The notes below the pieces were generated by a model. The model was given only the letters and a program-made list of their open reading frames with translations, was not told the origin of the DNA and did no database searches. Shown piece by piece: positions 2 through 36,911 of a DNA stretch of 64,000 nt; within the stretch, counting starts at the first letter, position 1; every line of letters starts with the position of its first letter. This stretch comes from a virus (lineage: Duplodnaviria; Heunggongvirae; Uroviricota; Caudoviricetes), in the IMG/VR virus record IMGVR_UViG_2579778660_000001; one strand, 5' to 3'. A program made the position numbers and the translations under genes.

Positions 2-2509
2 GATGGTAGTGCCAATATCGACCTGCCGGGCGTGAATAAAGCAGGTAATCAGAGCACTACCGGTAATGCTGCAACCGCTACAAAACTGCAAACAGCCCGC
101 ACAATCAACGGTGTTAAGTTTGATGGTTCTGCGAACATTTCGATACCAACAATCACGTCCAGAGGGCGTGTTACTGCGCTCACCGATACAACACAAGGTG
201 CTGCTACTGGATTGCAGATGTATGAGGCGTACAACAATAGCTACCCGACCGCGTATGGCAACGTATTGCACATGAAAGGTGCGAGTGCTGCTGGTGAGGG
301 CGAGTTGCTTATTGGCTGGAGTGGTACGAGCGGTGCACATGCGCCGGTTTTCATTCGCTCCCGAAGAGATTACGCTGATGCGGCATGGTCAGCGTGGGCG
401 CAGGTATATACATCAAGGGACTCCATTCCTGGTGTGAATGCCACTGGCAATCAGAATACAACTGGCAATGCAGCAACTGCTACAAAACTACAGACGGCAA
501 GAACTATCGGCGGAGTTAGCTTTGATGGTACTGCGAATATTAATTTACCTGGTGTTAACGTTGCGGGTAATCAGAATACATCCGGTAACGCGGCTACAGC
601 GACCAAGTTACAAACCGCGAGAACTATAAATGGGGTGTCGTTTGACGGTTCTAAAAACATTGAGCTAACTCCAAGGTCTATAGGCACGATCAACTCAACA
701 ACAATGTCTTTTAGTGGTGGTGCTGGATGGTTCAAGCTGGCAACTGTAACCATGCCACAGGCCAGTTCTATGGTTTACATAAGCCTGATTGGTGGTGCTG
801 GATATAATGTTAACTCCCCTATGCAGGCTGGTATATCTGAACTTGTTCTTCGTGCGGGAAATGGGAATCCAAAAGGTCTTACCGGTGCGTTATGGCGACG
901 GACATCGGTTGGATTTACTAATTTTGCATGGGTGAATACATCCGGTGATACCTATGATGTTTATGTTGAAATAGGTAATTACGCCACGGGTGTAAATATC
1001 CAGTGGGATTATACCAGGAACGCCAGCGTAACGATTCATACATCACCATCTTATACAGCGGATAAACCAACAGGCCTGACAGATGGAACTGTATATGTCA
1101 TTTACAGTTCGCACATTAAACCGACCGCCACGGATGTCGGCGCATTCCCAATAACCGGAGGAAATCTCAAAGGCGGTTTAACGGCTACTGGTGAGATCAT
1201 TTCAAAATCGGCGAATGGTCAGCGCATTGCCTACGGAAACTACGGATTCTTTATCCGAAACGATGGTTCACACACATTTTTCATGTTGACCGATTCGGGT
1301 AACAGCCTGGGAACCTATAATAATTTAAGGCCGCTTATTATTAACAACGCCAATGGTACTGTTACGATCGGTAATGGACTCAATGTTACTGGCGGCATCA
1401 ATGGTAGTTTGAACGGTAATGCTGCAACTGCAACAAAACTGCAAACAGCACGCACAATCGGCGGAGTGTCATTCGATGGTAGTGCCAATATCGACCTGCC
1501 GGGCGTGAATAAAGCAGGTAATCAGAGCACTACCGGTAATGCCGCAACCGCAACGAAACTACAGACTGCACGCACAATCGGCGGCGTGTCGTTCGATGGT
1601 AGTGCCAATATCGACCTGCCGGGCGTGAATAAAGCAGGTAATCAGAGCACTACCGGCAATGCTGCAACTGCAACAAAACTGCAAACAGCACGCACAATAG
1701 GCGGAGTGTCATTCGATGGTAGTGCCAATATCGACCTGCCGGGCGTGAATAAAGCAGGTAATCAGAGCACTACCGGTAATGCCGCAACCGCAACGAAACT
1801 ACAGACTGCACGCACTATCAACGGTGTTAAGTTTGATGGTTCTGCAAATATTACTTTAACTGCTGCTAACCTTGGCCTGAGCGATTCAAGCGGATATGTT
1901 GGGCGTTTGGTGAATACCCAGGTTTTCACTTCATCAGGTACGTATACCCCAACCCCAGGAACAAAACGGATCAGGGTCACAATAACGGGCGGCGGTGGCG
2001 GAGGGGGCGGCTGCAAGGCATACTCGAACAGCGAGACGTTTTTCGGTGCTGGCGGTGGGGCCGGTGGGACAATAATTTCAATAATGACCCCGACACAGAA
2101 TAGTTATCCAGTCACTATCGGCGCAGGTGGGGCCGGTGGTGTTAGTGCGACGAACGGCACCAGTGGCGGGAAAAGCGTATTCGCATCGTTAATTGCTCCT
2201 GGTGGCTCAGGCGGCGGAAAGTCAGGAGTCACAAACACAAACGGTGGTAACGGAGGTGTGCCGAGTACTGGCGATATCCGCATCACTGGTGGATATGGAG
2301 GCGACGGTCAGTCCGGAAATATCGGCGTCAGCGGTGAAGGCGGAACATCGTACTGGGGCGGCGGTGGACGTGCAGGCGCTGGCGGTGGTGTTATCGGTAA
2401 AGCATATGGTTCAGGCGGAGGTGGCGCATACGATGCCGGTTATAGCGGAACCAGTATGACGGGCGGGAAAGGCGCTTCAGGGATTTGTATTATCGAGGAG
2501 TTTGCATAA
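2..2509 (+). CDS. tail fibre protein, 5' partial (reading frame is open from the first bases of the window)
   Basis: Reiterated 40-aa motif GNAATATKLQTARTI(G/N)GV(S/K)FDGSANI typical of enterobacterial phage tail fibres; Gly-rich C-terminus; followed by an overlapping assembly-chaperone gene. The track start at 32 is GTG but the frame continues upstream. Confidence 0.85.
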   Translation, partial: DGSANIDLPGVNKAGNQSTTGNAATATKLQTARTINGVKFDGSANISIPTITSRGRVTALTDTTQGAATGLQMYEAYNNSYPTAYGNVLHMKGASAAGEGELLIGWSGTSGAHAPVFIRSRRDYADAAWSAWAQVYTSRDSIPGVNATGNQNTTGNAATATKLQTARTIGGVSFDGTANINLPGVNVAGNQNTSGNAATATKLQTARTINGVSFDGSKNIELTPRSIGTINSTTMSFSGGAGWFKLATVTMPQASSMVYISLIGGAGYNVNSPMQAGISELVLRAGNGNPKGLTGALWRRTSVGFTNFAWVNTSGDTYDVYVEIGNYATGVNIQWDYTRNASVTIHTSPSYTADKPTGLTDGTVYVIYSSHIKPTATDVGAFPITGGNLKGGLTATGEIISKSANGQRIAYGNYGFFIRNDGSHTFFMLTDSGNSLGTYNNLRPLIINNANGTVTIGNGLNVTGGINGSLNGNAATATKLQTARTIGGVSFDGSANIDLPGVNKAGNQSTTGNAATATKLQTARTIGGVSFDGSANIDLPGVNKAGNQSTTGNAATATKLQTARTIGGVSFDGSANIDLPGVNKAGNQSTTGNAATATKLQTARTINGVKFDGSANITLTAANLGLSDSSGYVGRLVNTQVFTSSGTYTPTPGTKRIRVTITGGGGGGGGCKAYSNSETFFGAGGGAGGTIISIMTPTQNSYPVTIGAGGAGGVSATNGTSGGKSVFASLIAPGGSGGGKSGVTNTNGGNGGVPSTGDIRITGGYGGDGQSGNIGVSGEGGTSYWGGGGRAGAGGGVIGKAYGSGGGGAYDAGYSGTSMTGGKGASGICIIEEFA
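1410..1850 (+). repeat. tandem 120-bp in-frame repeats (about 3.7 copies, near-identical) inside the tail fibre gene
   Basis: Direct reading: the unit aacggtaatgctgcaactgcaacaaaactgcaaacagcacgcacaatcggcgg...ccggt recurs at 120-bp period; degenerate copies at 1-120 and 430-660. Confidence 0.85.
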
Positions 2510-2919
2510 TGAATACGTCATATGCAGTTATTGAAAATGGGATGGTTGTGAATGTCATTGTCTGGGATGGCGAGGCTGAATTCACAGTGCCGGATAATCA
2601 GCAGCTCATTAATATTTCTGATATCAGTGAGCAGCCCGGAATCGGCTGGGTGTATTCAGACGGGGGATTTACTGCGCCACCCACTCCGGAACGTTCTCAT
2701 GATGAACTGGTAGCTGACGCTGAACAGAAAAAACAGTCGCTGATTGATACCGCAATGGCTTCCATTAGTCTTATTCAACTGAAATTACAGGCCGGACGGA
2801 ATCTTACGCATGCTGAAACCACCCGTCTTAACGCTGTGTTGGATTATATCGATGCGGTGACCGCAACGGATACCAGCACTGCACCAGATGTCAATTGGCC
2901 AGCGTTCCCGGAGGCGTAG
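2509..2919 (+). CDS. tail fibre assembly / chaperone protein (U-like)
   Basis: ATG overlaps the tail-fibre stop (TAATG) with GGAG 12 nt upstream; C-terminus ...DTSTAPDVNWPAFPEA resembles Tfa-family chaperones; position immediately 3' of the fibre gene. Confidence 0.6.
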   Translation: MNTSYAVIENGMVVNVIVWDGEAEFTVPDNQQLINISDISEQPGIGWVYSDGGFTAPPTPERSHDELVADAEQKKQSLIDTAMASISLIQLKLQAGRNLTHAETTRLNAVLDYIDAVTATDTSTAPDVNWPAFPEA

Positions 2920-3314
2920 TCCATTTAATGAAATATCTGGATCGCTGGAAGCATCGACTGGTTCCAGTGCATCCAGATAAGATGATTACTGTTCATGCTT
3001 CAAGAGCGAGCGCATACTGCATCCAGGCCAATCTAACTTTCATTCGACCAGAGTGTCACCTCTCAAAAGCATTTTTTGACTCTGGTCGTTCAGCCTTTTT
3101 GCCGCTCGCCTTATCCTCAAAAATTAGCTCACATCCTGCGCTTTCAAGGGCATTTCGTTGCAAAGCGGTGTTTTGGTCATTTGTTGATATGCGAATGTAT
3201 CCAATAAGCATATGTCTCCCTTGTATGCTAAGGATACGATTCTAGAAGATGTCCTGTAAGGAAATAACAAACTGACTAAGTTAGTGGCGCATTAGATGTT
3301 ATTTCTGGAGGGGT

Positions 3315-3641
3315 ATGTTTGCAGATTATGAAAATCTGGCTGTAGTAGTCATAACATCCCTACTAAGTGGAACCGGCGTATTCCTTCTCGGAGTCAGAGA
3401 CGGGCGCATTTCTGCGTCCCTGCTCAATCTTGCGAGTGAATTGTTTACTGCGGTAACAGCCGGGCTTGCGGGGTATGGGGTGGCGGTTAGCCAAGAATGG
3501 CCTGAAGGTATCATTTTCTGCGTTGTTCTGATTGCCAGTAACAACGGAAGAGAAATTTTACAGGGCTTGAAGTCCAGAGCTAGTAACGTCTTGAATCTCT
3601 TAAGCGTAATAGCGAATGGGGGAAAAGGTGGAGAGAAATAA
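3315..3641 (+). CDS. putative holin (LydA-like), 108 aa, predicted membrane helices
   Basis: GGAGGGG RBS; hydrophobic segments; size and position match the first gene of the P1 darA/lyd operon (recalled gene order, not searched). Confidence 0.45.
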   Translation: MFADYENLAVVVITSLLSGTGVFLLGVRDGRISASLLNLASELFTAVTAGLAGYGVAVSQEWPEGIIFCVVLIASNNGREILQGLKSRASNVLNLLSVIANGGKGGEK

Positions 3642-11422: not shown

Positions 11423-12385
11423 GTGAATATTTTAAATTCAGTTTCAGTAACTTTCAACACTTCTGAGTATAAAAACAACACTGAATACCACAAAAAAATC
11501 AAAGGTCATCAGTTGAGTTTTTTTGCTCGTCATATCGGTCTTCTTTCCCCTTCACATAGCGCCATTATTGCCGAGTTCGCCAACCTGGCAGGGGCTACCG
11601 ATGAATACATGATCCGTCGCTCATATGCTGATATGTCCGAGATTACAGGACGCAGTATTTCTACTGTACGCCGGGCATTTGCTGAAGCGACGAAGTGCGG
11701 AATGCTTGTTAGGCAACATCAGGTAGCGAATAACAATGCCCAGGTGTGTAACGTATATCGGTTTACGACACAATTTCTCCACTTCATTCATGTAGCAATG
11801 GAGATAGGGGGTAAGCAGGGCATCAAATTTGCCAACGCCACAAAACTGGTTAAGCAGTTGATTTCAAAGGTTCGTTATTTTTTTGAAACTGGGAACCCCC
11901 TGTTCAAATTGAACAAGTCCCCCCATGTTCAAAATGAACAGCCAATAGAAAATAAGAGTCACTCTATAGCAAAAAGAAGAGAAAGATCATGCGCGGTTCA
12001 GCCAAAGGCTTCACCAGCAGATAGTTCTCAAGCGGATAATGGGGTGCTGGATAAAAAACCAGTGATCAGGGAAGAACATACCAACCGCTGCCTGGCGGCG
12101 GCAAAAGCGAGAGCTGCAAAGCGTCGTTCAGACGAGGGGCACGCAAAACGGCAGGCTCTGTATCGTACCGCTGAAAAGTTGGCAAAAAAATTTGCATGGA
12201 TACGTAGTGCCGCTACCGCAGTGAATAAGCCTAAACAATCCAGCGCCCTGGATTTCTCAATGGATTATTCTGGCTCCCAGGGGTGTGCAACCATTGGTGA
12301 AGCCTTTGACCTGATGAAACAGCGTGGCTATCGGTCTGAATTTGACCGGGAGGATTGGTCAATCCCTGCGGGATTCAGGGGATGA
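11423..12385 (+). CDS. helix-turn-helix DNA-binding protein (possible replication or immunity regulator), 320 aa
   Basis: Winged-helix-like segment ITGRSISTVRRAFAEATKCGML; basic C-terminal half; GTG start without a clear RBS, so the true start may be internal. Confidence 0.45.
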   Translation: MNILNSVSVTFNTSEYKNNTEYHKKIKGHQLSFFARHIGLLSPSHSAIIAEFANLAGATDEYMIRRSYADMSEITGRSISTVRRAFAEATKCGMLVRQHQVANNNAQVCNVYRFTTQFLHFIHVAMEIGGKQGIKFANATKLVKQLISKVRYFFETGNPLFKLNKSPHVQNEQPIENKSHSIAKRRERSCAVQPKASPADSSQADNGVLDKKPVIREEHTNRCLAAAKARAAKRRSDEGHAKRQALYRTAEKLAKKFAWIRSAATAVNKPKQSSALDFSMDYSGSQGCATIGEAFDLMKQRGYRSEFDREDWSIPAGFRG

Positions 12386-29452: not shown

Positions 29453-30813
29453 GTCTGGTTAATTGGGAGGAGCACCGCGCCCGCTTTATAGCGTTGCGTG
29501 AAGAAAAAGGGATCACTGTAAAGGAATACTGTGAGGAGCATGGCCTTAGCTTCAATACAGCCAGAAAGCATCTCAATATGAAAAAAAATGAGGTGCGGTC
29601 GCAGGTAAAGACAACAAAAAAAAGCACCAAATCACCTGAAAAAAAACGGGCAGGAAGAGCAACAAAAAAGCAGGAAGAGGGTGCAGGAAAAACAAAATTT
29701 ACAGAAATTGACAATTCGCAGGGCGCAGGTTCTTTCCGAAGTATGCCGAGAAAGAAAACTTCGGATCATGAAAATAATTCAAATAATAACAATGAGATAA
29801 AAGAATCCGTCAGGAGATCATTACGCGAAAAAATGGCGAAAATGATCCCCGAAGAAGATAAAAGCGCCCCAAAAATTGAGGGATCTTCTGCAATGATCCC
29901 TGACGGTGCTGTGCAGCGTGCCACATTGCCAACTACGAATGTAGCTCGCGATATGATGAAGAACGGCGCAGAAGAACACCTGCGGTTAGCAATTCAAATG
30001 GCGCAAGAGCGCGCACTTCAGTATCAAAGCATTGTTGATCAGGAGGCCGAACGTCTACAGGCGGAAATAGACACCCTGGGCGATAAAGAGCCAGAAGGAA
30101 TGCACCCTGGGCAGCGCCTTCTCGGTCTAATCAGTGACGCGGCCTACTACATGAATGATTTTATCAGTAGGTTGGCAGCTATTTATCAGTCCGAACAAAA
30201 GCTGCGACAGGGGGATGAAAAGCTTCGTCAGAGCGCTCGCCAGCAAGCATTCAAAGAGGCTGAGGCCAGAGAAAAACTCGAATTAGCACGCCTACAGGCC
30301 GAACAGCGTGGCAAAGAGATTGAATATCGCATTGGCGCTGACGCACGCGCAGCCAGAGTTATCGCCGCCGCTATACGTATGCGTGAGCGCGAGGAACTGG
30401 ATGATATCGGTGTTGCTGAATACATCGAGCGCCAGGGTGTCAGCGTCCCGGCTATCCTCGCGGCGCGCGCGGCGAAAGCTATCACTCTTCTCGAACCACC
30501 TGTTTCTGACGTCAATGATGTTGATGATGAACAGCTGGACAAAGAGGCAAGGGAGTTTGCAACGCTTCAGGCTAACCATCCGCAATGGCTGGCAGAGCGC
30601 CGGGCGGATGTGGCAACCATTGTTGAAGAATTGGGGTGCGGAGATTACGACCGCAATGGCGAGCGTAAAGCTGGAGAATTCGAGGCCAACGACGAAGAGC
30701 TGGATATTGACCCTTCGGCAACGGCTGAAATTTACGGTGATTATGATGCATCTGATGCAGGGTATGACGCCGGAGATGATGATATCGCGATAGAACCGCC
30801 GGAGGATGATTAA
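29449..30813 (+). CDS. pacA: terminase small subunit / pac-recognition protein (PacA-like), 454 aa
   Basis: ATGA overlap with the upstream gene; basic N-terminal region and highly acidic C-terminus; directly precedes the terminase ATPase; GATC-rich segment inside the gene. Confidence 0.6.
   Translation: MSLVNWEEHRARFIALREEKGITVKEYCEEHGLSFNTARKHLNMKKNEVRSQVKTTKKSTKSPEKKRAGRATKKQEEGAGKTKFTEIDNSQGAGSFRSMPRKKTSDHENNSNNNNEIKESVRRSLREKMAKMIPEEDKSAPKIEGSSAMIPDGAVQRATLPTTNVARDMMKNGAEEHLRLAIQMAQERALQYQSIVDQEAERLQAEIDTLGDKEPEGMHPGQRLLGLISDAAYYMNDFISRLAAIYQSEQKLRQGDEKLRQSARQQAFKEAEAREKLELARLQAEQRGKEIEYRIGADARAARVIAAAIRMREREELDDIGVAEYIERQGVSVPAILAARAAKAITLLEPPVSDVNDVDDEQLDKEAREFATLQANHPQWLAERRADVATIVEELGCGDYDRNGERKAGEFEANDEELDIDPSATAEIYGDYDASDAGYDAGDDDIAIEPPEDD
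29760..29900 (+). promoter_or_regulatory. candidate pac cleavage region (GATC cluster)
   Basis: Five GATC sites (29764, 29816, 29844, 29882, 29895) within about 135 bp inside pacA, as hexamers of the form NGATCN; P1 pac is a Dam-methylated hexamer cluster inside pacA. Confidence 0.35.
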
Positions 30814-32321
30814 TGGCTGGCAGGCGCAAGGTTAAATGCGTCACCAGAGATCCACGCTGGCGCGATATGGTAATCAAATACCGCTACAACTTTACCCAGG
30901 CTGTTGTCGATATTTTTGGGATGTTCCCCTCCCACCAGCAGCAGCAGATCATTCAGTCCGTACAGGAAACGGGGAGTAGGACTACCGTCACGTCCGGACA
31001 CGGAACGGGGAAGTCGTCCCTTACCGCGATGTTGCTGTTGATTTTTATGATCCTGTTCCCCGATGCCCGTGTCATCATTGTTGCTAACAAGATAGGCCAG
31101 GTAAAAACAGGCGTATTCAAATACGTTAAACAGTATTGGGCGAATGCAGTTAAGCGTCATGGGTGGTTGCAGACCTATTTTGTCCTCTCTGACACCATGT
31201 TTTATGAGCGCTCCCGTAAGGGGATTTGGGAAGTTCTCTGCAAAGGTTATCGACTCGGCAACGAAGAAGCGCTGGCGGGGGAACACGCGGCACATTTGCT
31301 TCTAATTCTGGATGAAGCATCTGGTATATCTGATAAGGCGATCGGCGTAATGACCGGTGCTCTTACTGAAGAAGATAACCGGATGTTGATGCTATCCCAG
31401 CCAACAAGGCCAAGTGGTTATTTCTACGATTCGCACCATTCTCGAGCAAAAACCCCAGACAACCCGAAAGGGATCTGGACAGCAATTGTTCTTAACTCGG
31501 AAGAATCACCGTTCGTCACACCACAATTCATCAAGGAGAAGCTTCTGGAATATGGCGGGCGCGATTCTATTGAGTACATGGTCAAGGTGCTTGGTCAGTT
31601 CCCACGAGAAATTAACGGCTATTTGCTTGGTCGTGATGAATGCGATCGCGCTGCTCGCCGCAAGGTGTTGTTGGAGAAAAACTGGGGATGGGTGGCAACG
31701 GCTGACGTTGGTAATGGGCGAGATAAGTCGGTCCTCAACATCTGCAAGGTATCAGGTCACAGGGATAAGCGGCGCGTTGTTAACTTTAAGGTAATGGAGA
31801 TGCCTGGCACTATGGACCCATTGGCCTTTGCTGACTTCATATATAACGAATGTACGCCGGAAAAATACCCGAATATAACAATCGCGGTTGATGCTGATGG
31901 TTTTGGTTCTGATACGTGTGCGCAGTTGGTGCGTCGTGGTGCGAACCCGGTACGTATTCGGTGGGGAAAACCCATGTTTGCGAACAAAGACAGGGAGCGA
32001 TTTGTTAATCAGCGAGCCTACGCAAATATTATGGCGCGTGATGCCATAAAGTCAGGGCGTATGCGGATAGACAGTGACTCTAAAACGGCAGAGCAAGCGT
32101 CAAAAATCCCCTTTTTACTGAATGAAGAAGGGAAAATGGCGATGATGCGCAAAGAGCACATGCGGCAAAAGCTAAACATCAAATCGCCTGACCGATGGGA
32201 TACCTACTGCTTCACTATGCTGGTGGACTATGTGCCTGCTAATGAAGATATTGGTGCCGAAATGGCAACTTTCCGAGATCAGGTTCTGGCGGATATCGAA
32301 ATGCCGGATCTGGATATATAA
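30813..32321 (+). CDS. pacB: terminase large subunit (PacB-like), 502 aa
   Basis: Walker A GHGTGKSS and Walker B LLLILDEASG; TAATG overlap with pacA; size close to P1 PacB. Confidence 0.75.
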   Translation: MAGRRKVKCVTRDPRWRDMVIKYRYNFTQAVVDIFGMFPSHQQQQIIQSVQETGSRTTVTSGHGTGKSSLTAMLLLIFMILFPDARVIIVANKIGQVKTGVFKYVKQYWANAVKRHGWLQTYFVLSDTMFYERSRKGIWEVLCKGYRLGNEEALAGEHAAHLLLILDEASGISDKAIGVMTGALTEEDNRMLMLSQPTRPSGYFYDSHHSRAKTPDNPKGIWTAIVLNSEESPFVTPQFIKEKLLEYGGRDSIEYMVKVLGQFPREINGYLLGRDECDRAARRKVLLEKNWGWVATADVGNGRDKSVLNICKVSGHRDKRRVVNFKVMEMPGTMDPLAFADFIYNECTPEKYPNITIAVDADGFGSDTCAQLVRRGANPVRIRWGKPMFANKDRERFVNQRAYANIMARDAIKSGRMRIDSDSKTAEQASKIPFLLNEEGKMAMMRKEHMRQKLNIKSPDRWDTYCFTMLVDYVPANEDIGAEMATFRDQVLADIEMPDLDI

Positions 32322-32323
32322 AA

Positions 32324-32340
32324 GCCCCGCAGTGCGGGGC
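32324..32340. terminator. bidirectional terminator-like hairpin (gccccgc-agt-gcggggc) between convergent genes
   Basis: Perfect 7-bp GC stem; weak T run. Confidence 0.4.
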
Positions 32341-32349
32341 CGGTGGTGA

Positions 32350-33387
32350 TTACCAGAGCTTTGCGGCGCGCTGCGTTTGGGGGAATGTGTATCCGTAACG
32401 TTCTTCGATTGCTTTGCCGTATTTTTTACGCGCTTCATTCAGTTTGATGCCGGTCAGGTCGTCTCCAGAGGCCATCATTACGTCTAACAATTCCAGATCC
32501 ATTTTATCCAGCCTTGCCATTGCTTCACGCGATGTACGAATCTTACGTTCAATGATATGGCGAATAGCCGGATCGGCATCCTCCAGCATCTTAGCTGATT
32601 TCTGCTTAAGGTTTTCGTTGCGGATATCGATGTTCCTTAAGATATACGACTTCGCAACGTAGCTTGGCTGATGTTTTTCCAGGTCACGAACACGATATAA
32701 GCTAAAGTCGCCGAGAAGGCTGCAAGGCACCGATTCGACGCCAGAATAAATTGTAATGCTACGGCGTTCACCAACATTATTGACAACGGGGATCGTTGTC
32801 TTCGGTAGTTTTGCGAAAACGAATGCGCCATGTGCGCCAACTCTAAAGCGAGAAAGGGCATTGCTGCCTTCGATGTTTGTTGTCAGCACAACATCTGTAT
32901 ATGCCTCTTTACGCGCCCGGTAGACCTCGCCTTCAGGCTCAGCTTCAAAGAAGCGCTGTTCTTCTTCAAGAGCACCTACGATTTGAGAAAAAACCCTATT
33001 TTTCAGGCTTTTCTTTATGATTTTGTCGTATTTTTTGAGCAATTGTTCACGTGTAAATGTACGTGTTGTTGTAGCGCTTTGCACAACAACATGCGTGCTT
33101 TGATTGGTGTCCTCAATGATGAATGGGATCGGAGAATATACAGACTCAACAATGTTAGACGCTTTGCCGTCAGCATTACGGCACAAGTCAACAAAGGCTT
33201 TCCATTCTGCGAGGCACTTTTCAGCTTCTTCTAGTACATTTTGGTCGTGTGTTAGTGCAACGTGGCGGAATTCCTCGCCAGCATAACTGGTATCATGGAA
33301 AACAGAGTTTGCGACCACCAGCTCTTTCCACCGTTCAGCGGTTTGCAGGAACCGTTTGTACTCTTTCTCGATCGACTTCTTACTCAT
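32350..33387 (-). CDS. candidate C1-type immunity repressor by position (c1 slot between pacB and the rox-dre unit), 345 aa
   Basis: Position matches c1 in the P1-family pac-c1-lox arrangement; an operator-like motif lies in its own upstream region; no motif-level identification possible. Confidence 0.4.
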   Translation of the reverse strand: MSKKSIEKEYKRFLQTAERWKELVVANSVFHDTSYAGEEFRHVALTHDQNVLEEAEKCLAEWKAFVDLCRNADGKASNIVESVYSPIPFIIEDTNQSTHVVVQSATTTRTFTREQLLKKYDKIIKKSLKNRVFSQIVGALEEEQRFFEAEPEGEVYRARKEAYTDVVLTTNIEGSNALSRFRVGAHGAFVFAKLPKTTIPVVNNVGERRSITIYSGVESVPCSLLGDFSLYRVRDLEKHQPSYVAKSYILRNIDIRNENLKQKSAKMLEDADPAIRHIIERKIRTSREAMARLDKMDLELLDVMMASGDDLTGIKLNEARKKYGKAIEERYGYTFPQTQRAAKLW

Positions 33388-33410
33388 TATTCCTACTCGA
33401 TTTAGTTTTC

Positions 33411-33427
33411 TAACATAAAATCCCTAT
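33411..33427 (-). promoter_or_regulatory. operator-like site ATGTTAGAAAACTAAAT upstream of the c1-slot gene
   Basis: Motif copy 24 bp upstream of the start at 33387. Confidence 0.55.
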
Positions 33428-33600
33428 GACAAATCTATGTCGAATAACAGAGTGAGTAAAGGATCGAACTATGATTTTTTTGTCATCAACTTTAGAAAAC
33501 CAACCGTTGAAACCACACTTCGCAAATTAAAGACCATGAAGGCAACGTGTTACTGTCCATCATCAATCTATGATGGATTACAAAAAAAATCGGCATTTTA

Positions 33601-33634
33601 TAACTTTAAATAATGGGGATTATTTAAAGTTAGG
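33601..33634 (+). other. rox-type (lox-like) site-specific recombination site
   Basis: TAACTTTAAATAAT-GGGG-ATTATTTAAAGTTA: 14-bp perfect inverted arms around a 4-bp spacer. The arms match the rox site of the Dre recombinase as I recall it (spacer GCCA there), and share ATAACTT...ATA with loxP arms. Confidence 0.8.
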
Positions 33635-33784
33635 CTATAATCATGTGTAGATGAACAGTATTGACATCACTGAAAATACGTGCCTCGAATCAAAGGCTTG
33701 TATTTTGAAAATTAACTTATAGCTACCCTGTCATTTTTATATTTTTCGCGTAGCGTCATATGTATATAGAGGCGAAATAGTTTC

Positions 33785-34813
33785 ATGGGAGAATTAATTA
33801 TCTCTGGCAGTTCCGGTGGTTTTCTGCGCAACATTGGCAAAGAGTACCAGGAAGCCGCAGAAAACTTTATGCGGTTCATGAATGACCAGGGGGCTTATGC
33901 GCCGAATACTCTGCGCGACCTCCGGTTGGTGTTTCATTCCTGGGCGCGCTGGTGTCACGCTCGCCAGCTCGCCTGGTTCCCGATCTCACCAGAAATGGCC
34001 CGCGAGTATTTTCTTCAGCTGCATGATGCCGATCTGGCTTCGACCACCATTGATAAGCACTACGCCATGCTGAACATGCTGCTTTCGCATTGTGGCCTTC
34101 CGCCACTTTCGGATGATAAAAGTGTTTCTCTGGCTATGCGGCGCATCCGGCGCGAAGCGGCAACTGAAAAAGGCGAACGAACAGGCCAGGCTATACCGCT
34201 GCGGTGGGACGATCTGAAACTGCTCGACGTCCTGTTGTCCAGGTCAGAACGGCTGGTGGACCTGCGCAACCGGGCTTTTCTCTTTGTTGCATACAATACG
34301 CTGATGCGTATGTCGGAAATCTCGCGTATTCGTGTAGGAGATCTGGACCAAACAGGTGACACTGTCACGCTACATATTTCACACACGAAGACAATAACGA
34401 CCGCCGCCGGGCTTGATAAGGTGCTTTCCCGTCGCACTACCGCTGTGCTGAATGACTGGCTGGATGTTTCCGGGCTTCGCGAACATCGTGACGCAGTGCT
34501 GTTCCCGCCGATACACCGTAGCAATAAGGCCAGGATCACGACAACGCCCCTTACTGCACCTGCAATGGAGAAAATATTCAGCGACGCCTGGGTGTTGCTG
34601 AATAAAAGAGATGCTACGCCAAACAAAGGGAGATACCGGACGTGGACCGGGCATAGTGCACGCGTCGGGGCCGCTATTGATATGGCTGAAAAGCAGGTGT
34701 CTATGGTGGAGATCATGCAGGAAGGAACCTGGAAGAAACCGGAAACACTTATGCGGTATCTGCGCCGTGGCGGTGTGTCTGTGGGGGCTAATAGCCGCCT
34801 GATGGATTCGTAA
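33785..34813 (+). CDS. dre: Dre-like tyrosine site-specific recombinase (Cre homologue), 342 aa
   Basis: Extended colinearity with P1 Cre (WARWC..WFP, LNMLLS..GLP..SD..VSLAMRRIRRE, AYNTLMRMSEISRIRV, GHSARVGAA..MA, W...LMRYLR), catalytic R/H-x-x-R/W/Y in place; rox-type site 150 bp upstream. Confidence 0.9.
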   Translation: MGELIISGSSGGFLRNIGKEYQEAAENFMRFMNDQGAYAPNTLRDLRLVFHSWARWCHARQLAWFPISPEMAREYFLQLHDADLASTTIDKHYAMLNMLLSHCGLPPLSDDKSVSLAMRRIRREAATEKGERTGQAIPLRWDDLKLLDVLLSRSERLVDLRNRAFLFVAYNTLMRMSEISRIRVGDLDQTGDTVTLHISHTKTITTAAGLDKVLSRRTTAVLNDWLDVSGLREHRDAVLFPPIHRSNKARITTTPLTAPAMEKIFSDAWVLLNKRDATPNKGRYRTWTGHSARVGAAIDMAEKQVSMVEIMQEGTWKKPETLMRYLRRGGVSVGANSRLMDS

Positions 34814-34814
34814 A

Positions 34815-34831
34815 TTAAATTTCTAACACAT
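34815..34831 (-). promoter_or_regulatory. operator-like site ATGTGTTAGAAATTT
   Basis: Between the dre stop and the next operon. Confidence 0.45.
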
Positions 34832-34886
34832 CTTTTTAGATTAACGCCTTTGATGTAAAGTACCCTCGCCTATTTAGGAGGGTGCT

Positions 34887-35231
34887 TTGCAGAGTCAAAT
34901 CACGGAATCAAGACGCTTCAAGGTGGATGGTTACACCGTAACCTTCGCTGCTGGTGTTAAGAACAGTCATGCTGTCGTTGTGTTCGGCATCATGACCGGG
35001 CTTGAGGCCGTCCCTGTGTTTACCCTCGAAAAAAACTGGCGAAATCTGGAGGAAGCAGAAAGCTACGTCCGGAAAGTAACCATCATTGCCGCCGAAAAAC
35101 TCCTGGCCCACTATCAGGAAAATTATCGCACTATGGTCGAGAAGATTAATCTCGCTTTCACTCGCCCCACTACCGGCTTTATTGCACCGGATACTAATGC
35201 AGGTCGCTATCCTGCAAGGGGGCGTCGGTGA
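34887..35231 (+). CDS. hypothetical protein, 114 aa
   Basis: GGAGGG RBS with TTG start. Confidence 0.4.
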   Translation: MQSQITESRRFKVDGYTVTFAAGVKNSHAVVVFGIMTGLEAVPVFTLEKNWRNLEEAESYVRKVTIIAAEKLLAHYQENYRTMVEKINLAFTRPTTGFIAPDTNAGRYPARGRR

Positions 35232-35704: not shown

Positions 35705-36195
35705 TTTACGTAAAAGTGAAACGCCTACATCCGGCAGCAAAACTTCCAGCTTATGCCACCTCCGGATCGGCGGCGATGGATTTTGAGGCTGTTGAAATAA
35801 AACCATGCGTCGATAGCAATGGTGCAATTTCCTCAAGCTGGTGGGTGTATACCGGACTGGCTATGGAGATCCCGCCCGGCTGGTGTCTGAAACTCTATCC
35901 GCGATCCGGATTGGGCTGCAAAAAACATACTCGCCTGGCTAACTGCGTAGGAATTATCGACTCCGATTATCGCGGCGAAATCATGGCAAAACTGATTACT
36001 GATCCCGGCGGGGAAGGCGTTTGTCTCAAGCCTGGAATGGCTGTCATGCAAGGAATTTTTGAACGTGTTGAACAAGTCTCACTAGTCGAGGTTGAGGAAC
36101 TCAACGAAACGGAACGTGGTGCTGGTGGCTTTGGTAGCACATCGGAAGGCCACTTTGAAATTAAGCGTTCACCGCTTCAGTACGAAAAGTTATAA
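35701..36195 (+). CDS. dut: dUTP diphosphatase (trimeric dUTPase)
   Basis: Motifs PRSGLG, GIIDSDYRGE and C-terminal RGAGGFGSTS. Confidence 0.8.
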   Translation: MIYVKVKRLHPAAKLPAYATSGSAAMDFEAVEIKPCVDSNGAISSSWWVYTGLAMEIPPGWCLKLYPRSGLGCKKHTRLANCVGIIDSDYRGEIMAKLITDPGGEGVCLKPGMAVMQGIFERVEQVSLVEVEELNETERGAGGFGSTSEGHFEIKRSPLQYEKL

Positions 36196-36209
36196 GCAGA
36201 GAAAAGACT

Positions 36210-36911
36210 ATGAATAACATGGCAACGAAAGAGCTTTTTAAGTTCCTTCCCAAATACAAAGCTCACAAAAACGTTAGTGCATCGAAAATCAAAAATGTTG
36301 TTATTTTCGGAGTAACTGATGCCCCACTTTGGGGCAGCATCGAACTCGTTGAACCAAAAGGGGCAACAGTTTGTGTTGACGCAATGTTTTTACAAAAACA
36401 CCGACCAAAAACTGGCGGGTATCTGATCGTTTATGAAAACGGTTATCTGTTCTATGCCCCGGAGAAACCATTTGAGGAACGCTATGGCCTGGTTAACGAC
36501 GTCTCCAAAAATGGAACCACGGTCATCATTACGGATGACAACGGCGAGATGATTAATCTTACCGGGAGCGTAACTATTTCTGCTGGTGGCATCACCACCC
36601 AGCAAGAAGAAATCGACCTTGAAGCAGCCGACTTTTCTGACGCGCTGATGTGGCTGAAGGATGGCAAGAAAGTTGCCCGGCGCGGGTGGAACGGCGAAAA
36701 CCAATTCTGCTGGCTGGTTCCAGACAAACACGGCGCTTCAAGACTAACCCCTATAAAACATGCCATCAATGGAGAGCTTGAAATCAATTTCGACTCTCCT
36801 CTTGCTCCTTATGGTACGCATTTCGCTTTGAAAAATGCACAAGGTGTAGTTGTTCCGTGGGTGCCTTCTGTAGGCGACTTACTGGCATGTGACTGGTTTG
36901 TAGTGGAGTGA
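36210..36911 (+). CDS. two-domain protein with C-terminal DUF2829-like domain, 233 aa
   Basis: C-terminal segment FSDALMWLKDGKKVARRGWNGENQFCWLV...PWVPSVGDLLACDWFVVE matches the DUF2829 pattern. Confidence 0.45.
   Translation: MNNMATKELFKFLPKYKAHKNVSASKIKNVVIFGVTDAPLWGSIELVEPKGATVCVDAMFLQKHRPKTGGYLIVYENGYLFYAPEKPFEERYGLVNDVSKNGTTVIITDDNGEMINLTGSVTISAGGITTQQEEIDLEAADFSDALMWLKDGKKVARRGWNGENQFCWLVPDKHGASRLTPIKHAINGELEINFDSPLAPYGTHFALKNAQGVVVPWVPSVGDLLACDWFVVE

Follow-up and report, generated by a model that had tools for sequence, protein, structure and literature searches.

The closest described systems are Cre/loxP of phage P1 and Dre/rox of Escherichia phage D6 (AY753669; MF356679), which are mutually heterospecific (PMC4957104). 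The sequence of rox has been published (PMC4777119; also the supplement of PMC4957104), and the literature gives its core as GCCA (PMC4777119), the reverse complement of TGGC. Dre tolerates changes in this core (PMC4777119, PMC12331466). Engineered rox variants, in which the arms were kept and the central bases changed, recombine with themselves through wild-type Dre (PMC4777119, PMC12331466, PMC8762395); the set comprises rox7, rox8, rox12, rox61, rox85 and rox62, the libraries rox4R, rox6R and rox2N, and roxsym1/2. The arms of a further site, pox from the Panto/pox system of Pantoea sp. aB, are nearly those of rox, and either enzyme, Dre or Panto, recombines both of them (PMC4957104). Co-integration between rox and pox failed, which the authors attributed to the cores (PMC4957104).

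We analysed a stretch of 64,000 nucleotides of viral DNA (IMG/VR record IMGVR_UViG_2579778660_000001), referred to here as the window, in which all features described by a first-pass annotation were found where that annotation had placed them. The gene dre, at 33785..34813 on the + strand, encodes a Cre-family tyrosine recombinase of 342 amino acids. The protein matches the Pfam family Phage_integrase (E = 5.5e-17) and is 41% identical to P1 Cre (BLASTP), with all catalytic residues aligned: R175, E178, K202, H290, R293, W316 and Y325 correspond to Cre R173, E176, K201, H289, R292, W315 and Y324. Assignment to the Cre family was therefore correct, but the description as merely ‘Dre-like’ was too cautious. 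The protein is Dre itself, identical to D6 Dre at 340 of 342 positions over the full length (99.4%), with the substitutions S2G and P235R, and it is encoded in the same genomic setting.

The gene order pacA-pacB-c1-rox-dre-orf-orf-dut is common to the window, D6 (AY753669) and plasmid pCR-0543_3; the identification of pacB is backed by PHROG matches. The c1 repressor homologue (32350..33387, - strand, 345 amino acids) is identical to D6 C1 at 336 of 345 positions, matches phrog_1678, and is annotated as ‘phage repressor protein’ in AY753669 and pCR-0543_3. It is a neighbouring immunity gene and lies outside the recombination unit. The region is present in 116 PLSDB plasmids at 60-99% identity, with sizes of ~87-97 kb among the matches listed. 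The D6-like phage-plasmids of the P1 family are extrachromosomal elements of ~90 kb with an immC region of the P1/D6 type, and the window belongs among them.

The recombination site occupies 33601..33632 on the + strand, about 152 nt upstream of the dre ATG. Its 32 bp consist of a left arm (TAACTTTAAATAAT, 33601-33614), the core GGGG (33615-33618) and a right arm (ATTATTTAAAGTTA, 33619-33632). The arms form a perfect 14-bp inverted repeat in an inverted-repeat scan, and both are identical to those of the annotated D6 rox (AY753669, 4909-4940), which bears out the earlier assignment to rox rather than loxP. Read towards dre, the core is TGGC in D6 and GGGG in the window, with changes at core positions 1 and 4 (T>G and C>G). 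The site is thus not fully equal to canonical rox, and the difference in the spacer that had been noted is real. It amounts to two of four bases and not three, because GCCA, the spacer given for rox in the first-pass annotation, is the reading of the opposite strand. The window and D6 are ~97% identical over a 400-bp alignment, and within the site the two core bases are the only differences. Strand exchange is predicted to involve the 6 bp at 33614..33619 (+ strand), which read TGGGGA here and TTGGCA in canonical rox; the cleavage positions follow from the analogy with loxP discussed in PMC4777119. The site is present once in the window, even when up to 3 mismatches are allowed (shuffled sequences predict 0). 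No half-sites or core copies above chance occur elsewhere in the window, and a search of it for a second rox or pseudo-rox site as a possible donor of the core found none.

The GGGG core is rare. In 40-bp megablast counts, which require an exact 28-mer across the core and leave variant-arm sites with either core uncounted, GGGG is found in one of 5,426 complete E. coli genomes, and TGGC in 94 complete E. coli genomes and 111 PLSDB plasmids. GGGG is absent from PLSDB plasmids (0) and from the metagenome contigs (0 of 14); TGGC is carried by 31 of 35 IMG/VR relatives and 11 of the 14 metagenome contigs. The plasmid closest to the window (98.9% identity) has TGGC, and this core persists at loci where flank identity to the window falls to 77-87%. 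TAGC, TAGT and TGGA also occur as natural rox cores. A further IMG/VR contig, UViG_2579778873_000001, carries GGGG and matches the window at 100% identity across 6 kb. Two independent assemblies share the allele, one an IMG/VR contig and the other a RefSeq plasmid (NZ_JBSWAS010000004.1); to the right of the site they show 37 differences per kb (~3%). The second carrier is a circular plasmid of 92,705 bp. Exact rox arms in a Clostridia MAG were rejected as a chance identity; they form a terminator-like hairpin between convergent housekeeping genes, with A and T runs at its sides and no recombinase nearby. Two other loci, L036 and L037, were considered as Panto/pox and rejected, because the pox arms and core differ.

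These comparisons identify the Dre/rox module of an E. coli phage-plasmid that is D6-like and belongs to the P1 family, with a rare natural core in rox. We conclude, with a probability of roughly 0.78 for the reading as a whole, that the module serves cyclisation and dimer resolution as in D6 and P1, with no new specificity of the enzyme. What the window contains is the known Dre/rox pair with a minor core allele, and not a new recombination system. Cre-family enzymes recognise the arms of their sites sequence-specifically, as work on Cre/loxP indicates, and are not known to read the central bases in this way. Dre dimers would bind the two unchanged 14-bp arms, with cleavage and strand exchange following across the centre of the site, and the specificity of the recombinase, judged from the arms and the protein, should be unchanged. 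The natural partners would be two copies of the same element, either the terminally redundant ends after injection or the two halves of a plasmid dimer. Since such partners carry the same core, GGGG would always meet a homologous GGGG. The first-pass annotation had also proposed a directionality variant, but GGGG is asymmetric like TGGC, so recombination is expected to proceed with ordinary directionality. In this way the module would cyclise the genome and resolve dimers just as its counterparts in D6 and P1 do. Published pooled data on the central four bases suggest that Dre recombines GGGG-rox (PMC4777119), and from the pooled rox4R library and the other engineered cores we infer that the site recombines with itself. 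The run of four Gs could alter bending or the efficiency of cleavage.

Among related loci, the two flanks of rox differ in their degree of identity. Loci L004 and L029 are 95% identical in the left flank and 79% in the right, and L029 and L030 are 72% identical in the left and 96% in the right. Between L004 and the window the left flank is 87% and the right flank 98% identical, with the switch located between 33609 and 33645. The two GGGG carriers share 3.4 kb to the left with about 10 differences and diverge by ~3% from 33667 onwards. These patterns point to rox as a junction between the modules on its c1 side and those on its dre side, which relatives carry in different combinations through reassortment. 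The interval in which the haplotypes of the GGGG carriers switch is 243 bp long, so ordinary homologous recombination near rox could account for the switch as well. The module junction at rox has a parallel in P1, where lox is a hot spot of recombination.

Whether GGGG-rox recombines with canonical rox is predicted differently by two published data sets, with opposite outcomes. One alternative to our reading is that the site is heterospecific, recombining with itself and not with TGGC-rox, and that its lineage is isolated from Dre-mediated exchange with other D6-like plasmids. In favour of this, ATCCCCAT versus ATGCCAAT fails on either side, no co-integration occurred between rox and pox, whose cores differ (PMC4957104), and two substitutions in 4 bp against a local divergence of ~3% exceed what drift alone would give. 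However, when a library randomised at the same four bases was combined with wild-type rox, recombination was about 0.9, equal to the wild-type control (PMC4777119). The bases implicated in incompatibility are the first arm bases on either side of the core, positions 2 and 7, and they are wild type in the window (T and A); the window differs from rox at positions 3 and 6 only, and thus lacks the changes that mark the heterospecific variants. The haplotype switch beside rox in the GGGG carriers further argues that the lineage is not isolated from exchange. We regard heterospecificity as a genuine possibility that the balance of these observations disfavours, and even if it were true it would be of the same kind as in the engineered rox7/8/12/61/85/62.

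A second question is why the core is otherwise so strongly conserved. In the D6 intergenic region, TTGGCA and TATAAT at a distance of 16 bp match the promoter consensus at 11 of 12 positions and constitute the sole promoter-like site called there. The central TTGGCA of canonical rox, together with the TATAAT 16 bp downstream, would thereby form a near-consensus sigma-70 promoter facing dre. The same scan called no promoter-like site in the window, where GGGG turns TTGGCA into TGGGGA and the match to the -35 hexamer falls from 5/6 to 3/6. The candidate -10 hexamer itself is intact, as a perfect TATAAT directed towards dre at 33636..33641 (+ strand), 3 bp past the right arm. This TATAAT is invariant at offset +3 in all D6-like loci, including 14 of 14 metagenome contigs, while the adjacent bases vary. 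Against a promoter at this place, the -35 hexamer is also weakened in two other natural alleles, as TTGGAG (L030) and TTAGTA (L044/L045). A second candidate dre promoter, TTGACA-18-TCGAAT at 33661..33690 on the + strand, matches at 10 of 12 positions; it is the top hexamer pair in the intergenic region of the window, missed under the stricter calling rule, and 8 of 9 D6-like representatives retain both TTGACA and CGAATCA. Further downstream, a strongly conserved block in the dre leader (33717..33757, + strand), which contains CTACCCTGTCATTTT followed by TTTTTCGCGTAGCG, persists in L034 despite a right flank of 65% identity. A search of the leader for a structured RNA gave no match in Rfam (top score IS128, 17 bits against a threshold of 80).

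On the basis of these sequence features we tentatively propose that rox is dual-purpose, with the strand-exchange region doubling as the -35 hexamer of a dre promoter. With Dre on rox, the -35 hexamer and the spacer between -35 and -10 would be covered, so that Dre could repress its own transcription. The core would then be fixed by the promoter and by the homology needed for module exchange, a combination that would explain the strong conservation of TGGC. GGGG would be a promoter-down, partly isolating crossover allele; rox-proximal transcription of dre would probably be lower, with the second candidate promoter remaining. Neither of the D6 records (AY753669, MF356679) annotates a promoter at rox, and the three cre promoters annotated in P1 all lie on the downstream side of lox, not inside it. 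A full-text literature search for rox with promoter or autoregulation, the coverage of which did not extend to the original Dre/rox and D6 genome papers, returned nothing relevant.

The opposite view is that the core change is a neutral polymorphism, which affects neither recombination nor expression, and that TTGGCA and TATAAT do not make a working promoter. The pooled rox4R library tolerates core changes broadly, and the existence of the other natural cores fits with this view. A match to a consensus is no proof of function, and a match of at least 11/12 anywhere in that intergenic region has a chance of about 0.035, which is only moderate evidence. The persistence of TGGC despite a flank divergence of 13-23%, and the fixed offset of TATAAT among variable neighbours, argue instead for constraint on exactly those bases, and we consider strict neutrality rather unlikely. 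Some constraint other than a promoter could also be the cause of the conservation of TATAAT.

The first-pass annotation had further noted a palindrome upstream of the site and suggested that it controls the recombinase gene. The palindrome exists and is slightly longer than was reported: TCCATCAT-caatct-ATGATGGA, at 33556..33577 between c1 and rox, has arms of 8 bp (33556-33563 and 33570-33577) in the inverted-repeat scan. A role in the control of dre is unsupported, as the palindrome follows the c1 flank, is absent in some relatives and degraded in close ones, and has no extra copies above chance. D6 has arms of 6 bp, and three other loci (L005, L008 and L012) carry the repeat in degraded form. 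It is lineage-specific and tied to one type of c1 flank; where the c1 flank is of another type it is missing, even if the dre flank shares 98% identity with that of the window. We rejected the palindrome as a member of an operator family, because 7 matches with up to 3 mismatches were found against 3.7 expected (8 of 100 shuffles gave as many), and because it is not conserved among relatives. A terminator was likewise rejected, since on the + strand an A-run follows the repeat and on the - strand a T-run precedes it; a terminator scan of the window did not list the palindrome.

Far less probable is a new specificity of the enzyme, in which Dre with S2G and P235R would have co-evolved with the variant core and would prefer it. 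Position P235 aligns with Cre P234, near the DNA-contacting residues R241 and K244 of Cre, and both substitutions are found in the window only, among the four sequences compared. However, Dre of the other GGGG carrier, pCR-0543_3, has neither substitution, which rules out covariation of protein and core. The new protein-DNA specificity proposed by the first-pass annotation thus finds no evidence, with both arms equal to those of rox and a protein that is nearly identical to Dre. A sequencing or assembly artefact, suggested by the error-proneness of homopolymer runs on some platforms, is ruled out for practical purposes by the identical core in two independent and mutually divergent assemblies and by the nature of the change, which consists of two substitutions with the length unchanged.

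For genome engineering the gain is small, as the enzyme is Dre, the arms are those of rox, and heterospecific cores have already been engineered. GGGG-rox would at most be one more characterised core, which could help to settle the conflicting rules of core compatibility in rox. For the biology of phage-plasmids, the modest point is that rox marks the line across which modules of the immunity side (c1) and of the dre side appear to reassort. New here is the overlap between the rox core, otherwise so strongly conserved, and the -35 hexamer of a putative promoter facing dre. With a working promoter, D6-like elements would link expression of the recombinase to occupancy of the recombination site, a coupling that the annotation of the P1 cre region does not show.

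Compared with the known systems, the window pair is Dre/rox proper. Panto is only 52% identical to Dre, and pox has the sequence GAAACTTTAAATAA-TAAGTC-TTATTTAAAGTTTC. With P1 Cre/loxP the locus shares the enzyme family, the catalytic residues, the place beside c1 and the pac genes and, presumably, the roles in cyclisation and dimer resolution. The two differ in the architecture of the site (13-8-13 in loxP, 14-4-14 in rox), in the sequence of the arms, and in the presence in P1 of cra and the annotated cre promoters downstream of lox. The engineered heterospecific rox variants are man-made and changed at positions 2 and 7, whereas the allele in the window is natural and changed at positions 3 and 6; GGGG would have been among the 256 members of the rox4R library, assayed there as part of the pool. 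Dre/rox of D6 has the same arms, spacing to the start codon (153 by the count used in this comparison) and synteny, and differs in its core TGGC with the -35-like hexamer TTGGCA, where the window has GGGG without the hexamer, and in the two residues of Dre at which the window protein carries its substitutions.

The locus is the Dre/rox system of Escherichia phage D6 itself, carrying a rare natural allele of the rox core. The recombinase, a 342-aa ORF at 33785-34813 (plus strand), is identical to D6 Dre at 340 of 342 positions (the differences are S2G and P235R). With P1 Cre it shares 41% identity, in an alignment that pairs the Cre catalytic residues with R175, E178, K202, H290, R293, W316 and Y325, and it matches the Pfam family Phage_integrase. 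With 33400-34900 as megablast query, D6 was matched at 96.6-97.1%, along with 116 plasmids, of which E. coli accounts for 94, Salmonella for 16 and Shigella for 6; the IMG/VR contig UViG_2579778873_000001 is 100% identical to the window across 6,026 bp. The D6 immC record, AY753669, lists pacA, pacB, c1 (minus strand), rox, dre, two orfs and dut, with rox labelled 'region of crossover (rox) site for Dre recombinase', and this gene order is common to the window and plasmid pCR-0543_3.

A 345-aa ORF at 32350-33387 (minus strand; 336/345 residues identical to the D6 C1 repressor) is a neighbour of the recombination unit and lies outside it. The 397-bp intergenic region between the two ORFs contains the rox site, TAACTTTAAATAAT-GGGG-ATTATTTAAAGTTA (33601-33632), whose 14-bp inverted arms match perfectly and whose end lies 152 nt upstream of the recombinase ATG. 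At up to three mismatches the site is single-copy in the 64-kb window, where chance predicts none, and a search of the window for further half-sites or core-region copies found none. The first-pass annotation had placed the site and the recombinase ORF correctly. Its reading of a Dre-like enzyme with a rox-type site holds in part: the enzyme is Dre itself and the arms are those of rox, whereas the core differs.

Aligned in the same orientation, the D6 and window sites have identical arms and non-identical cores, TGGC in D6 versus GGGG in the window, with changes at the first (T>G) and fourth (C>G) bases. In the 1-8 numbering of PMC4777119, the wild type reads ATGCCAAT and the window ATCCCCAT, with changes at positions 3 and 6. 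The spacer thus differs from rox at two of four bases; the GCCA given in the annotation was the other strand, because rox is published as TAACTTTAAATAATGCCAATTATTTAAAGTTA (PMC4777119) and primers in PMC4957104 carry both strands.

Alleles were counted with 40-bp queries designed so that each 28-mer seed spanned the core. GGGG occurred in none of the PLSDB plasmids (TGGC in 111), in one of 5,426 complete E. coli genomes (TGGC in 94), in one of 35 IMG/VR recombinase relatives with a site, namely the window's own contig (TGGC in 31), and in none of 14 metagenome contigs with perfect arms (TGGC in 11). The single E. coli carrier is strain 205, on plasmid pCR-0543_3 (urine, Houston); the nearest plasmid, CP125036 (98.9% identity), has TGGC. 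GGGG is not an error: it is found in two independently assembled carriers, whose sequences differ by 37 positions per kb right of the site. The remaining IMG/VR loci carry TGGA (one), TAGC (one) or GTCA (two, in which the arms differ as well), and the remaining metagenome contigs carry TAGT (two) or TAGC (one). Among these low-frequency alleles, TAGC (L034, L046), TAGT (L044, L045) and TGGA (L030, with right arm GTTATTTAAAGTTA) retain the first core T, unlike GGGG. A natural asymmetric rox, with left arm TAACTTTAGATAAT (A>G at arm position 9) and a canonical right arm, lies ~150 bp upstream of dre in 10 of the 35 IMG/VR loci (L004, L009, L011, L018-L020, L022 and L029-L031). Most of its occurrences go with an alternative c1-flank type, which L010 combines with a canonical arm.

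The first-pass annotation proposed a possible new orthogonal specificity. Nothing indicates a new enzyme specificity, since the arms are unchanged and the second GGGG carrier has neither S2G nor P235R; GGGG is asymmetric, and directionality is therefore of the ordinary kind. For recombination between GGGG-rox and TGGC-rox, two published studies give opposite predictions. With wild-type rox as partner, a library randomised at the central four positions recombined 'nearly completely (~0.9)', as did the wild-type control; when incompatibility was selected for, positions 2 and 7 became skewed and positions 3 and 6 stayed 'relatively unaffected' (PMC4777119). By contrast, heterotypic pairs recombined only when an unbroken run of four bases was identical on one side of the 8-bp region (PMC12331466), a rule that GGGG and wild type fail on both sides (ATCC vs ATGC and CCAT vs CAAT). 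The evidence thus does not demonstrate a new orthogonal specificity, and one of the two published data sets speaks against it. Whichever prediction holds, heterospecific rox cores have already been engineered; the natural GGGG allele would be a clean test case for the disagreement between PMC4777119 and PMC12331466 on central-four variants.

Two IMG/VR contigs, L036 (IMGVR_UViG_3300013827_000026) and L037 (IMGVR_UViG_3300025735_000294), offer a stronger candidate than the window's locus for a new Cre-family pair of recombinase and site. Their site, TAACTTTATATAA-TGTCAG-TTATATAAAGTTA (L036:2317-2348), departs from rox in both arms by a symmetric A>T substitution and is not pox, which is GAAACTTTAAATAA-TAAGTC-TTATTTAAAGTTTC. 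A recombinase 55-56% identical to Dre (2501-3514) follows ~150 bp downstream, and a c1-like 350-aa ORF lies on the other side. A Clostridia MAG (CALXYR010000051.1; L079:5072-5103) also has the exact rox arms, here around an ATTA core, between convergent housekeeping genes, one of them for a CDP-alcohol phosphatidyltransferase. The site is flanked by A and T runs and has no recombinase nearby; this is a terminator-like hairpin and apparently a chance pseudo-rox.

The flanks of rox are discordant. On the left (c1) and right (dre) sides, respectively, identity is 95% and 79% between L004 and L029, 72% and 96% between L029 and L030, and 87% and 98% between L004 and the window. The L004 type stays divergent as far as the left arm, which itself has A>G at position 9, and is nearly identical directly past the core. 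The GGGG carriers are nearly identical over ~30200-33660 and ~3% divergent from 33667 on. These patterns suggest that rox is a module boundary in D6-like phage-plasmids, across which the c1 and dre sides reassort. They are consistent with exchange at rox, although homologous recombination near rox may also account for the flank switch. Exchange at rox would have a parallel in P1 crosses, where exchange occurs at lox. Divergence between the window and pCR-0543_3 leaps to 50-68 differences per 200 bp at 36000-36900, in the region of a DUF2829-domain gene, which is another module replacement. On this plasmid (L039) RefSeq annotates a Thoeris anti-defence Tad2 family gene upstream of pacA (L039:388-963) and, downstream of the dre-dut block, a HumD-family gene together with the toxin-antitoxin pair phd/doc (L039:11170-11771, 11844-12040).

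The second palindrome of the first-pass annotation, TCCATCAT-caatct-ATGATGGA (33556-33577), is real and slightly longer than reported, with no copies above chance elsewhere in the window. Its proposed role in controlling dre is not supported: it is missing in loci with other c1-flank types, even beside dre flanks 98% identical to the window, its arms measure 6 bp in D6, and in L005, L008 and L012 the repeat is degraded. By inspection and by scan it is not terminator-like. Any function it has would belong with the c1 side rather than with dre.

The most concrete predicted effect of GGGG is loss of the -35 match in a conserved promoter-like site embedded in rox. In 600 bp around D6 rox, a promoter scan made one call, on the plus strand (TTGGCA-16 bp-TATAAT, 11/12 match), in which TTGGCA consists of the left arm's last T, the core and the right arm's first A; at least 11/12 anywhere in such a region arose in 3.5% of simulated random sequences. 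The window has TGGGGA (3/6) at the -35 position, and the scan called nothing there. TATAAT (33636-33641) starts 3 bp past the right arm and keeps this offset in every D6-like locus examined amid varying neighbours (ggcTATAATc, gtaTATAATa, tcaTATAATa, ggtTATAATg, gacTATAATc); two 55%-identical relatives lack it. TGGC is kept in loci with left flanks 77-84% and right flanks 77-87% identical to the window, a conservation on which both the promoter-like site and the module junction bear. We infer that Dre occupying rox would block the promoter-like site. A dre-leader block (…CTACCCTGTCATTTT…TTTTTCGCGTAGCG…; 33717-33757), with no Rfam match, persists in L034 despite a right flank of just 65% identity, and in part in the 55% relatives. 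Both D6 records lack a promoter annotation at rox. A second conserved candidate promoter (TTGACA, 18 bp, TCGAAT; 33661-33690) lies downstream of rox, and in P1 the three annotated cre promoters are all downstream of lox.
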